Below, piece after piece: positions 3,134-8,900 of a DNA stretch of 15,313 nucleotides (its first letter is position 1; each line of letters begins with the position of its first letter). Under the pieces are notes generated by a model. That model was not told the origin of the DNA, made no database searches, and saw nothing but the letters and a program-made list of their open reading frames with translations. The translations under genes and the position numbers were made by a program. Source of the stretch: Escherichia coli (GTDB taxonomy: Bacteria; Pseudomonadota; Gammaproteobacteria; Enterobacterales; Enterobacteriaceae); NCBI RefSeq assembly GCF_003334315.1, contig NZ_QOWR01000076.1. The stretch is one strand, 5' to 3'.

Positions 3134-4429
<1,296 letters not shown>

Positions 4430-4438
4430 TTAAAAAAA

Positions 4439-4465
4439 CCGCTCTCATCGAATGGATGAGAGCGG
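4439..4465. terminator. Bidirectional intrinsic terminator between convergent ybdG and pheP
   Basis: 11-bp perfect stem CCGCTCTCATC / GATGAGAGCGG with a 5-nt loop (4439..4465). An A7 run at 4432-4438 gives a U7 tail for the minus-strand (pheP) transcript; GTTTTG at 4471-4476 gives a weaker tail for the plus-strand (ybdG) transcript. Confidence 0.7.
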
Positions 4466-4496
4466 ACATCGTTTTGTCGGATGTAGCGTGAATGCC

Positions 4497-5873
4497 TTAT
4501 TTCCGACGCAGCGTTTTAAATGCCACAAACAGGAATACAATCCACACCGGCAGCAGGATCGCTGACAAGCGCATATCATCCATCGTGCACATCAGCAGCA
4601 AAATCATGCCGAGGAAGGCGATGCAAAGATAGTTGCCGAACGGATAAAGCAGCGCCTTAAACTGTGTTTCACGCCCCTGACGTCGCATCGCTGCACGAAA
4701 ACGCAGATGCGCCAGACAAATCATAATCCAGTTCAACAGCAGCGTTGCTACCACCAGCGCCATCAGCAGACCAAACGCTTTATGCGGCAGCAGATAGTTG
4801 ATTAACACCACCAGCGAAGTGATCGCTCCGGAAAGCATCAGCGAGTTAATCGGCACACCGCGACGGCTGACGCGAGTCAAAAACTTCGGCGCATTACCCT
4901 GCACAGAAAGGCCAAACAGCATGCGGCTGTTAGAGTAAACCCCGCTATTATACACTGACAGCGATGCTACCAGAATGACGAAGTTCAGCGCAGAAGCTAC
5001 CACGTTGCTGTCGAGATTATGGAAAATCATCACAAACGGGCTACTGTTGGATTTCACTTCCATCCACGGATAGAGCGCCAGTAAAACCACCAGTGAACCG
5101 ATGTAAAACAGCAGGATGCGATACACCACCTGATTTACCGCTTTTGGAATGCTTTTTTCCGGATCGCGCGCTTCAGCGGCAGTAATCCCAATCAGCTCCA
5201 GACCGCCGAAGGAGAACATAATTACCGCCAGCGACAAAATCAGCCCATTCCAGCCGGTGACGAAGAAACCACCGTAGCGCCAGAGGTTGTCGATACTGGC
5301 TTTCTCGCCGCCGTGACCAGAAAACAGCAGCCACAGGCCAAAGCCGATCATACCGATGATCGCCAGCACTTTAATCAGCGCAAACCAGAACTCGGTTTCG
5401 CCATATAAGCGCACGTTCACCAGGTTAACGGCGTTGATGATAATAAAGAAGGCGGCAGCCCAAATCCACGTTGGAACATCCGGGAACCAGTACTGCATAT
5501 AGATGCCCGCAGCGGTCAGCTCTGCCATTCCCACCAGCACGAACATTACCCAGTAGTTCCAGCCAGAGAGGAAGCCCGCAAACGGTCCCCAGTATTTATA
5601 GGCAAAGTGGGCAAATGAACCGGATACCGGCTCCTCAACCACCATTTCGCCAAGCTGGCGCATAATCAGGAAAGCGATGATCCCGGCGACGCCGTAGCCC
5701 AGCAATACAGCCGGACCCGCCATCTGAATCGCCGGGCCAATGCCAAGAAACAGACCAGTACCAATTGCGCCACCCAACGCAATCAGTTGAATATGACGGT
5801 TATGTAATCCGCGATGAAGCGTCGGCTCTTGATTCGACGCAGTATCTTCCGATACGGTTGACGCGTTTTTCAC
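4497..5873 (-). CDS. pheP: PheP, phenylalanine-specific permease (APC-family amino acid transporter)
   Basis: Minus-strand ORF. I chose the GTG start at 5873, preceded on the minus strand by CAGGGGAAAGGC, giving a 458-aa product (MKNASTVSEDTASNQEPTLHRGLHNRHIQLIALGGAIGTGLFLG...). Polytopic membrane protein that matches my recollection of E. coli PheP. The track's longer ORF (to 5909) starts at a non-canonical codon. Confidence 0.9.
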   Translation of the reverse strand: MKNASTVSEDTASNQEPTLHRGLHNRHIQLIALGGAIGTGLFLGIGPAIQMAGPAVLLGYGVAGIIAFLIMRQLGEMVVEEPVSGSFAHFAYKYWGPFAGFLSGWNYWVMFVLVGMAELTAAGIYMQYWFPDVPTWIWAAAFFIIINAVNLVNVRLYGETEFWFALIKVLAIIGMIGFGLWLLFSGHGGEKASIDNLWRYGGFFVTGWNGLILSLAVIMFSFGGLELIGITAAEARDPEKSIPKAVNQVVYRILLFYIGSLVVLLALYPWMEVKSNSSPFVMIFHNLDSNVVASALNFVILVASLSVYNSGVYSNSRMLFGLSVQGNAPKFLTRVSRRGVPINSLMLSGAITSLVVLINYLLPHKAFGLLMALVVATLLLNWIMICLAHLRFRAAMRRQGRETQFKALLYPFGNYLCIAFLGMILLLMCTMDDMRLSAILLPVWIVFLFVAFKTLRRK

Positions 5874-5974
5874 GCCTTTCCCCTGTGTGTCTTTTTTGTT
5901 GAGGGGCACCTTTTAACATTTAGTGCCCATCGTCGCAAGACACAATCCACACGGTTAAACGGGGTATCCTGCTT

Positions 5975-8900
5975 TTATTTCCGTACCCGATGTCGGTGCA
6001 GCCACATCAGCTTATACGCCGCCGGGATAATAAACAGCGACAGCAAAGGTGCGGTGATCATGCCGCCAATCATCGGCGCGGCAATCCGGCTCATCACCTC
6101 TGAACCAGCCCCCGTTCCCCACAGAATCGGCAGCAGACCGGCGATAATCACCGCCACCGTCATCGCTTTCGGGCGCACGCGCAGGACCGCGCCGTGATAT
6201 AACGCCTCATCCAGCTTCTGCTCGCTGAATGTTTGTGGATTATTCAACGACGGCACGGCCTCTATGGCGTGACGTAAATACATCAGCATCACCACGCCAA
6301 ATTCGGCGGCGACCCCGGCGAGGGCGATAAAGCCAGTGCCCGTCGCCACGGAAAGATGAAAGCCCATCCACCACAGCAACCAGATGCCGCCCACCAGCGC
6401 AAACGGTACGCTGCTGATAATCAGCAACGCTTCGCCCACCCGACGGAACGCCAGATACAACAGCACGAAGATAATCATCAACGTCATCGGCACCATGAGT
6501 TTAAGCTTATGGTTGGCGCGCTCCAGTAGCTCGAACTGCCCGGAGAATGCCACGCTGGTGCCCGGTTTTAACTGCACTTTTTCAGCTATCGCTTTTTGCA
6601 AATCGTGAACCACCGACACCATGTCACGATCGCGGGCATCGATATAAATCCAGCTCGTCGGGCGCGCATTCTCGGTTTTCAGCATCGACGGTCCGGTAGA
6701 GACTTTAATGTCGGCCACGTCTGCCAGGGTGATTTGCTGCTTCATCGGCGTCAGGATCGGCAGCTGGCGCAGTGCCTGCGGACTATCGCGCCAGCTTTGC
6801 GGATAACGCAGATTAATTGGATAACGGGCAATCCCTTCCACCGTTTCGCCAACCATCGCCCCGCCCACCGCAGAAGTCACAAACAACTGCACATCCGCCA
6901 CCGTCATACCGTAACGTGCGGCTTTTTCACGGTTAATCTCAACGTTGATATAGCGCCCACCTTCCAGCCGCTCGGCAAGCGCAGAAGCTACGCCTGGCAC
7001 CGTTCGCGCTACTTCTTCAATTTGCTCAGCCATCGCGTCGATATCCGCCAGCACAGTGCCGGAAACTTTAATGCCGATGGGGCTTTTAATGCCGGTTGAG
7101 AGCATATCGATACGGTTACGAATTGGCGGCACCCACAGATTCGCCAGCCCCGGCAGCCGCACGGTGTTATCCAGTTCCTCAATGATTTTGTCCATCGTCA
7201 TGCCTGGCCGCCACTGCTCCTGCGGCTTAAGCTGGATGGTCGTTTCTACCATCTCCAGCGGAGCAGAATCGGTGGCGGTTTCCGCTTTCCCGGTTTTGCC
7301 AAATACCCGCGCCACTTCAGGTACGCTCATAATTAGCTTGTCGGTTTTTTGCAGCATACTCGCCGCCTCTGCTGCGGAAATCCCCGGCAGCGTCGATGGC
7401 ATATACAACAAGTCGCCTTCATTGATCTGCGGTAAAAATTCCCCGCCAACTTTATTGAGCGGCCAGAGAACCGTCAGCACCGAAAGCGCCGCCACCAGCA
7501 GCGTGGTTTTCGGCCAGTGCAGTACTTTCAGCAACAGCGGATGATAAACACGAATCAAAAAGCGATTGAGCGGGTTACTGCTTTCCGGCGGAATTTTGCC
7601 ACGGATCCAGTAGCCCATCAGGATCGGGATCACTACGATCGCCAGCAGCGCCGCACCCGCCATCGCATACGTTTTGGTGAACGCCAACGGGCCAAACAGA
7701 CGCCCTTCCTGCCCTTCCAGGGTGAAGATCGGGATAAACGACAACGTGATAATCAGCAGACTGATAAATAGCGCCGGCCCCACTTCAACAGACGCATCGG
7801 TGATCACCTGCCAGCGCGTTTTATTATCCAGCGTGGCGTCAGGATGCTGGTGCTGCCACTCTTCCAGCCGTTTATGCGCATTCTCGATCATGACGATAGC
7901 AGCATCGACCATCGCCCCGACGGCAATCGCAATGCCACCCAACGACATAATATTGGCATTCAGTCCCTGGAAGTGCATGACAATAAAAGCAATACACAAC
8001 CCCAGCGGCAACGAAATAATCGCCACCAGCGCCGAGCGCACATGCCAGAGAAACAGCGCACAGACTACCGCCACCACAATAAACTCTTCCAGCAACTTGC
8101 CGCTGAGGTTGTCGATGGCGCGGTCAATGAGCTGGCTGCGATCGTATGTTGTAACTATCTCCACGCCTTCCGGCAGACTACTTTTCAGCGTTTCCAGTTT
8201 GTCCTTCACGGCGGCGATCACTTCTCGGGCGTTTTTGCCGGATCGCAGGATCACCACCCCGCCCGCCACTTCGCCTTCGCTGTTTAGTTCGGCAATGCCC
8301 CGGCGCATCTCCGGGCCAATCTGGACCTTCGCAACATCGCGCAGATAAACGGGCACGCCATTTTCACTGGCTTTTAAAACGATGTGATTAAAGTCGTCGA
8401 GCGTTTGCAGATAGCCGCTGGCGCGCACCATATATTCCGCTTCCGCCAGTTCGATCGACGAACCGCCCGCTTCCTGGTTTGAAGCATCCAGCGCGCTTTT
8501 TACTTCGGCGAGACTGATGCCATACTGCGCCAGGCGCTGGGGATCGATAACCACCTGATACTCTTTCACCACACCACCCACCGACGCCACTTCCGCAACG
8601 TCAGGGATGGTTTTCAGCTCATATTTGAGAAACCAGTCCTGTAATGAGCGTAAATCGGCCAGATCGTGCTTACCGCTGCGATCCACCAGTGCATATTCAT
8701 AGATCCAGCCAACACCCGTGGCATCTGGCCCCAGCTCGGCGCTGACTCCCGCAGGCAGCTTACCCTGTACCTGGTTGAGGTACTCCAGCACCCGCGAACG
8801 CGCCCAGTACGGATCGGTGCCATCTTCGAAAATGACATACACATAAGAGTCGCCAAACTGTGAGAAACCGCGCACAGTCTTCGCGCCAGGCACCGACAAC

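Follow-up and report, generated by a model that had tools for sequence, protein, structure and literature searches.

At which codon does translation of pheP begin? The window, by which we mean the whole 15,313-nucleotide stretch of Escherichia coli DNA analysed here (NCBI RefSeq assembly GCF_003334315.1, contig NZ_QOWR01000076.1), offers two in-frame candidates on its minus strand. The longest open reading frame (ORF) opens at a GTG at 5909-5907 and codes for 470 aa. A second GTG, 36 nt downstream at 5873-5871, gives a protein of 458 aa. The original prediction chose the second codon and set the difference between the two forms at 12 residues, which is exact; the extension reads MPLNKKDTQGKG. 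Our analysis leads to the same choice: PheP translation almost certainly starts at GTG 5873, read as the initiator Met, and the protein begins MKNASTVSEDT. Annotation, a curated family model, a comparison of 81 sequences, the leader, and initiation peaks and a peptide from K-12 all bear this out. The annotation match, the conservation and the family alignment were obtained here together with the sequence reading itself, and the transcript 5' end, the initiation peaks and the peptide are taken from published K-12 data.

The gene and its surroundings

The gene and a feature at its 3' side are placed as follows.

4497-5873, minus strand: pheP coding sequence, 458 codons plus stop (ORF listing, RefSeq match and NCBIfam NF007602)
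4439-4465, no strand assigned: terminator-like hairpin in the spacer of the convergent pair ybdG and pheP; its stem has 11 bp, and both strands carry T runs

The ORF from GTG 5873-5871 to the stop codon at 4499-4497 is 1377 nt long (458 aa, minus strand) and is E. coli pheP, the gene for a phenylalanine:H+ symporter of the amino-acid permease (APC) family. The 458-aa form scores 1035.9 bits against the NCBIfam equivalog NF007602 (PRK10249), whose cut-off is 851, and its residues 1-458 align end to end with the 458 positions of the model. From its near-identity to K-12 PheP, the protein probably serves high-affinity phenylalanine uptake. In the window, pheP lies between cusA, which is upstream, and ybdG, which is downstream and convergent; the cusA stop is at 5975, leaving a cusA-pheP gap of 101 nt.

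The locus is widespread in the species. When a 1.7-kb pheP region was compared with 5426 complete E. coli genomes, 5403 of them matched 80% or more of its length, and the order cusA - pheP - ybdG is found in all full-length matches among those listed. The closest match among the complete E. coli genomes is strain CP53 (99.9% identical). In the RefSeq annotation of both CP53 and K-12 MG1655, pheP is 1377 nt long and occupies the same position as in the window, and the annotated starts, including that of K-12 b0576 (601959..603335), are the GTG equivalent to 5873. The public protein collection contains an entry identical to the 458-aa window protein and none identical to the 470-aa window form. 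Downstream of the gene, the scan that found the terminator-like hairpin returned two terminators where 0.2 were expected. An insertion of about 96 bp, carried by some E. coli lineages, is also 3' of pheP and outside the 5' region that concerns us here.

Two in-frame GTG codons

The elements that bear directly on the choice of start are these.

5871-5873, minus strand: GTG start codon, decoded as initiator Met (sequence, annotation, orthologues and K-12 initiation data)
5880-5884, minus strand: Shine-Dalgarno (SD) sequence AGGGG, 6-nt spacer to the GTG, -6.5 kcal/mol against the anti-SD
5907-5909, minus strand: in-frame GTG that opens the longest ORF and is not the start; SD pairing at background; -6 to -4 relative to 5903
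5913-5915, minus strand: in-frame TAA that bounds the longest ORF, 13 open codons upstream of the start; falls within the -10 hexamer

Around the start, the minus strand reads ...ACACAGGGGAAAGGC GTG AAA AAC GCG TCA... with the GTG at 5873-5871, and over a longer span ...AAAAAAGACACACAGGGGAAAGGC GTG AAA AAC GCG TCA ACC.... After the bounding TAA (5915-5913), the GTGs at 5909 and 5873 are the only in-frame candidates; the next start-like codon in frame is a TTG at codon 33, which falls in the conserved first helix, and no in-frame ATG occurs before that of Met62. Within 13 open upstream codons, an in-frame start-like codon is expected by chance about half the time, and the existence of the longer ORF is therefore unremarkable.

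The two GTGs differ in their potential to pair with the ribosome. We took the 20 nt upstream of each ATG, GTG or TTG from 5960 to 5780 and paired them with the 3' end of 16S rRNA. GTG 5873 reaches -6.5 kcal/mol and GTG 5909 reaches -2.4 kcal/mol, against a background, from 20-mers of the window, with a mean of -2.26 and 8% of values at -6 or lower. No ATG, GTG or TTG between 5960 and 5780 other than GTG 5873 scores -6 kcal/mol or better. The purine-rich SD named in the original prediction is the AGGGG at 5884-5880, whose 6-nt distance from the GTG is inside the expected 5-9 nt and makes this an SD-led GUG site. The same prediction called the upstream start non-canonical and devoid of a ribosome-binding site. 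The second half of that description agrees with its background-level pairing, but the first does not hold, the codon being GTG just as at the preferred start.

The curated family model separates the two forms in the same way. When the 470-aa form is scored against NF007602, its residues 13-470 align to model positions 1-458, giving 1034.5 bits vs 1035.9 for the short form, and the 12 extra residues are unmatched.

Starts downstream of GTG 5873, at the TTG at 5777 (codon 33) or at Met62, can be weighed on the same evidence. In favor of Met62, it is the first ATG that the frame provides, and no start codon is commoner than ATG. However, with either start the protein would lose some of its first membrane helix and the conserved N-terminal stretch before it, and the lost part aligns to the models of PheP, AroP and other permeases from about residue 4-15 onward. 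Nor is there a better SD in the region, which was scored down to 5780, and the published peptide discussed below covers residues 1-21. The probability of a downstream start is vanishingly small.

Conservation of the start region

Orthologous loci were collected from one genome per species, giving 80 loci and, with the window, 81 sequences from Enterobacteriaceae (genera including Escherichia, Citrobacter, Salmonella, Enterobacter, Klebsiella, Kosakonia, Kluyvera and others). The codon aligned to 5873 is GTG in 80 of the 81 and TTG in the other one. An alignment of 52 species from -85 to +45 around the start has four conserved islands amid diverged sequence, namely CTTGC, TGTTAAAAGGTGCCCCTT, ACAGGGG and G(A/G)CGTGAAAAACGCGTCA. 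The SD block ACAGGGG is invariant or almost so in the 52 aligned species. By itself, the SD match in the window is only modestly beyond chance; its conservation in these species makes the SD convincing. Coding conservation (V/M-K-N/D-A-S) starts exactly at GTG 5873, and upstream of it only promoter-like and SD blocks are kept. The Salmonella and Citrobacter proteins are annotated from MKNAS too.

The proposal that PheP starts at the upstream GTG 5909, as a 470-residue protein, has some points in its favor. It takes the longest ORF in the frame, and the 470-aa form of another E. coli allele (P0012) stands in GenBank (GAB8737923.1 and GAB8869782.1) with an identical 12-residue extension. In 16 of the 81, moreover, the extension from the conserved GGTG is open and in frame for 11 or 12 codons; among these are E. 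coli, E. albertii and some Klebsiella, Raoultella and Trabulsiella. Everywhere else, however, the extension is not in frame, is mutated or meets a stop. An in-frame TAG two codons upstream of the aligned start makes the extension impossible in 32 of the 81, and the CCCC run of Escherichia sp. MOD1-EC7003 has a 1-nt deletion, which takes the upstream GTG out of frame. Apart from these cases, both the length and the content of the upstream frame vary freely. The block GGTGCCCC is kept as promoter DNA and not as codons, and the extension lies outside the curated model and follows a codon with background anti-SD pairing. Two further points against a 470-residue start, the position of the transcript 5' end and the N-terminal peptide, are taken up in the sections below.

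Predicted promoter and leader

Upstream of the start, the following elements are predicted or taken from published constructs.

5933-5938, minus strand: predicted -35 TTGCGA, 17 nt from the -10 hexamer (geometry and invariant TTG)
5910-5918, minus strand: predicted extended -10, with TG at 5918-5917, one base, and TAAAAG at 5915-5910 (conservation)
5874-5903, minus strand: 30-nt C/A-rich 5' untranslated leader, with its 5' end at 5903 as in published constructs

The promoter hexamers are inferred from the sigma-70 geometry of the first two conserved islands. The TTG of the predicted -35 is invariant in the 52 species, and TGTTAAAA, which spans the extended -10 region, is invariant or almost so across genera. 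From this geometry, transcription is predicted to start at about 5904-5903, the -10 hexamer ending 6 nt before 5903. A simple promoter scan reported no promoter in the region upstream of pheP, because it demanded a T at the last -10 position, where the hexamer here, TAAAAG, has another base.

A single pheP transcript start, 30 bp upstream, is said to have been mapped by primer extension by Pi, Wookey and Pittard in 1991. The same authors reportedly confirmed the GTG using mutagenesis together with pheP-lacZ fusions; one of the checks proposed with the original prediction is a start-codon mutant fusion of this kind.

Two laboratories' K-12 constructs take 5903 as the transcript 5' end, 30 nt upstream of GUG 5873. 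The pheP::gfp insert in pXG-10sf starts at CTCAACAAAA, which is window 5903, and holds 30 bp of leader and 120 bp of coding sequence (PMC11878033, Tables S3/S4). The synthetic pheP template used in INRI-seq starts at the same CTCAACAAAA and hence at the same position, 5903 (PMC9825163). If the leader begins there, the upstream GTG is in the promoter and outside the mRNA, 4-6 nt upstream of the leader 5' end. With +1 at 5903, this GTG occupies -6 to -4 and the bounding TAA falls in the -10 hexamer, so that the long ORF is a by-product of promoter sequence.

In the explanation that we favor, pheP would be transcribed from a promoter of its own, located in the 101 nt that follow cusA and made of the -35 TTGCGA, a 17-nt spacer and TG-n-TAAAAG, and its mRNA would begin at about 5903 with the 30-nt C/A-rich leader. 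The 30S subunit would pair with AGGGG (5884-5880) and initiate at GUG 5873, read as formyl-methionine. The GTG 36 nt upstream would be an accident of promoter sequence, placed between the -10 and the transcript start, without a ribosome-binding site and not conserved as coding sequence.

Other elements were considered in the same region. The conserved GCCCCU after the -10 might have formed an anti-SD stem with AGGGG. This was rejected: the CCCC variants CGGC, CGCC, CTCC and CGCA are uncompensated in the SD, and most of the block precedes the 5' end (5903). A TyrR box at TGTTAAAAGGTGCCCC was likewise set aside, only one half-site resembling the TyrR box consensus used for comparison. No Rfam covariance model matched window 5780-6000 on either strand at E <= 1.

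Published initiation and N-terminal data from K-12

The experimental start-site data all come from K-12, whose sequence matches the window letter for letter between the cusA stop and codon 21 of pheP. In INRI-seq, retapamulin-arrested initiation peaks are found at pheP (b0576, 601959) in five of five replicates, with values of 20.8, 21.6, 28.8, 21.7 and 29.8 (PMC9825163, Table S2). The in vivo Ribo-RET peak at the pheP start is 28.04 and is marked TRUE (Meydan et al. 2019 value, via the INRI-seq table, PMC9825163).

N-terminal proteomics, the other check proposed with the original prediction, is available in TRAINSPOTTER (2026), whose table lists N-termini indicative of initiation from a search of UniProt and a six-frame database (PMC13245402). 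Row 120 of its Table S1 gives for pheP the start codon GTG and the peptide MKNASTVSEDTASNQEPTLHR, residues 1-21 of the 458-aa proteoform; the entry is a database translation initiation site (TIS) at 601959-601961 with Ribo-RET and INRI support (PMC13245402). The peptide starts at the GTG codon, and the window encodes the same 21 residues; the predicted N-terminus MKNASTVSEDT is matched by the K-12 peptide. Since its Met at position 1 is encoded by GTG, initiation must have occurred at that GTG. A peptide beginning MKNAS with Met requires initiation at GTG 5873 and argues against the 470-residue start, which on all the evidence is extremely improbable.

Neither the INRI-seq template nor the GFP fusion contains the upstream GTG, and together they show that GTG 5873 is sufficient; whether GTG 5909 is never used is outside their reach. 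The GFP construct carries an in-frame ATG within its NsiI cloning site.

A mixed situation is also conceivable, in which most PheP starts at GTG 5873 and a minor 470-aa form is made from GTG 5909 on copper-induced read-through from cusCFBA. From the cusA stop (5975) to pheP, the terminator scan detected no terminator-like site on the minus strand, and read-through cus transcripts would therefore contain GTG 5909. GTG is usable as a start codon, and 17 upstream TISs are reported in other E. coli genes (PMC13245402). However, GTG 5909 has no SD and in the read-through RNA it would lie within a predicted -13 kcal/mol hairpin (GGGCACU...GGUGCCC), and the extension is not conserved. Among the TRAINSPOTTER Table S1 rows listed, pheP has the annotated TIS only and no upstream-TIS row (PMC13245402). 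We consider two proteoforms very unlikely, and the longer one, even if it occurred, would be translational noise without evidence of function.

Initiation at GTG 5873 is the reading that we retain. A literature search on the pheP GTG start codon returned no relevant match. The start is already known from the reference annotation, the curated family model and the published initiation and N-terminal data. Taking the longest ORF places the pheP start 12 codons too far upstream, an error present in at least two GenBank records from E. coli, where the 470-aa form is deposited. The relevance of the start is in this respect one of annotation hygiene only, and the biology is unchanged.

A conserved predicted hairpin at the start codon

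The pheP start codon lies inside a 6-bp hairpin predicted in 52 of 52 aligned species, and codons 2-5 are kept even at synonymous sites.

5860-5876, minus strand: predicted RNA hairpin GGCGUG-AAAAA-CGCGUC, 6-bp stem including the GUG start, 5-nt loop, -7.2 to -7.4 kcal/mol

In a 148-column alignment, RNAalifold gives this 6-bp stem as the sole consensus structure. Of the cells in the hairpin alignment 99.7% pair, and all variants are pair-preserving (A-U/G-U, U-G/U-A, C-G/U-G and G-C/G-U), every one-sided change in the stem keeping its pairing. No pair in the alignment is changed on both sides, and a shuffle control is therefore uninformative for this hairpin. Across pheP as background, 205 4-fold sites have a median major-allele frequency of 0.70, and the median 4-fold divergence from the window is 0.45. 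The third base of the start codon does not vary across species, nor do codon 2 (AAA) and codon 4 (GCG); among non-leucine 4-fold sites, only codon 4 and one other have a major allele at 0.97 or above. That the element is instead a DNA palindrome recognized by a protein was judged less likely: in E. coli, G-U wobbles make up two of the six pairs, and only pairing in RNA accommodates the one-sided changes.

Changing GUG to AUG is predicted to weaken the stem from -7.4 to about -2 kcal/mol and to raise the accessibility of the start from 0.19 to 0.71. Loss of the stem on a change to AUG may be a reason why the start stays GTG. Extending this, one could suppose that the GUG is held by selection, its G, kept in 80 of 81 sequences, pairing in a conserved hairpin that buries the start codon; the weak start and the hairpin would then hold synthesis of this membrane transporter low or make it tunable, for instance in concert with GcvB, which is reported to pair in the C/A-rich leader. 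Published work describes pheP as a modest target of GcvB, at 58% in a reporter assay, and an R1 seed is predicted. We regard the model of a functional start-codon hairpin as possible but rather doubtful. Folding of -30 to +15 gives -7.2 kcal/mol; annotated E. coli starts have a median of -5.1 (interquartile range -6.9 to -3.4), and the pheP value is only just past their lower quartile, which limits the case for a selected hairpin. The conservation after the start could also have causes other than the hairpin. To the known start the present analysis adds that the GTG, the promoter core and the predicted start-codon hairpin are strictly conserved across Enterobacteriaceae, a possible case of selected weak initiation.

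Comparison with known systems

Other GTG-initiated E. coli genes have proteomic support, with 50 GTG database TISs in TRAINSPOTTER, for example cra (PMC13245402). Like pheP, they have an SD-led GUG read as Met, with Ribo-RET or INRI-seq support. Retention of GTG in 80 of 81 Enterobacteriaceae sequences and a conserved predicted hairpin are properties surveyed here for pheP alone.

The window protein was also compared with the models of AroP, ProY, CycA and other paralogous permeases, and the second-best family model after PheP is that of AroP, the general aromatic amino-acid permease (NF007594). AroP belongs to the same permease family and fold class, and the window protein aligns to its model over residues 15-453; the N-terminal 14 residues are not common to AroP. 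The score of 681 bits is below the AroP cut-off of 848 and that of 1036 is above the PheP cut-off, and the window protein is therefore PheP and not AroP.

The nearest known system is K-12 pheP itself (b0576, NP_415108.1, UniProt P24207), which has the same neighbours, the same 1377-nt length and the same GTG start as the window. The pheP-ybdG spacer differs, being 67 nt in the window vs 80 nt in K-12. A few amino-acid substitutions also set the body of the window protein apart, for example FFVTGW, PWMEVK and LPHKAF vs FFATGW, PWVEVK and LPQKAF in the E. coli allele P0012. In the start region, the window and K-12 are the same.

Start-codon calls in database records

The original prediction started pheP at the GTG at 5873 and cautioned against a longer reading frame that adds 12 residues at the N-terminus. 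This mis-call does occur: in two GenBank records of E. coli (GAB8737923.1 and GAB8869782.1), both carrying the PheP allele P0012, the protein is annotated in a long form of 470 aa, with the N-terminus MPLNKKDTQGKG. The 470-aa form in these records is a rare mis-annotation. The pheP locus L003, from an assembly named 'Marinobacter sp. B9-2' (PYVH01000101.1, a 7.8-kb contig with coverage of about 8), has a 5' region identical to that of E. coli and encodes a protein 99% identical to the E. coli one; the contig is most likely E. coli contamination.

The start-codon region

The GUG start codon lies inside a predicted hairpin:

5860-5876, minus strand: GGCGUG-AAAAA-CGCGUC, 6 bp

The prediction holds in all aligned Enterobacteriaceae (52 of 52), every variant among them keeping the pairing, and in the same alignment the synonymous sites of pheP codons 2-4 are invariant. 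Replacing GUG with AUG would, by the folding model, make the hairpin less stable.

The predicted promoter region

Further upstream, TGTTAAAAGGTGCCCCTT (5901-5920, minus strand) forms a block that is near-invariant across genera, and its conservation reaches beyond what the -10 hexamer requires. Part of the block is the G+C-rich GGTGCCCC, which follows the -10 element and precedes the transcript start. The Shine-Dalgarno sequence was considered as a pairing partner of the block and rejected. An inverted repeat is also present here:

5904-5928, minus strand: GGGCAC (5928-5923) and GTGCCC (5909-5904), on either side of the -10 element

The repeat is Escherichia-specific and not conserved in other genera; if transcribed, its predicted folding energy is -13 kcal/mol.

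Flanking genes and the leader

On the downstream side, ybdG (3164-4429, plus strand) shows the same longest-ORF artefact: the ORF list has a TTG start at 3164 and 421 aa, and RefSeq has 1248 nt and 415 aa, that is, an ATG start at 3182 (MQDLISQ...). ybdG and pheP are convergent, and the spacer between them (4430-4496) varies in length within E. coli: it measures 67 nt in the window, K-12 has 80 nt, and JJ1887-type strains have 157 nt. The annotated pheP of JJ1887 is, in addition, 6 nt longer. The spacer contains a candidate terminator:

4439-4465, T runs on both strands: terminator-like hairpin, 11 bp

On the upstream side, the copper-induced cus transcripts may run on into pheP, because no terminator-like site was found between the cusA stop codon and pheP (5874-5974, minus strand). 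The pheP leader itself (5874-5903, minus strand) is 30 nt long and C/A-rich, CAACAAAAAAGACACACA; the small RNA GcvB is reported to target pheP modestly, via its G/U-rich R1 seed (PMC11878033).
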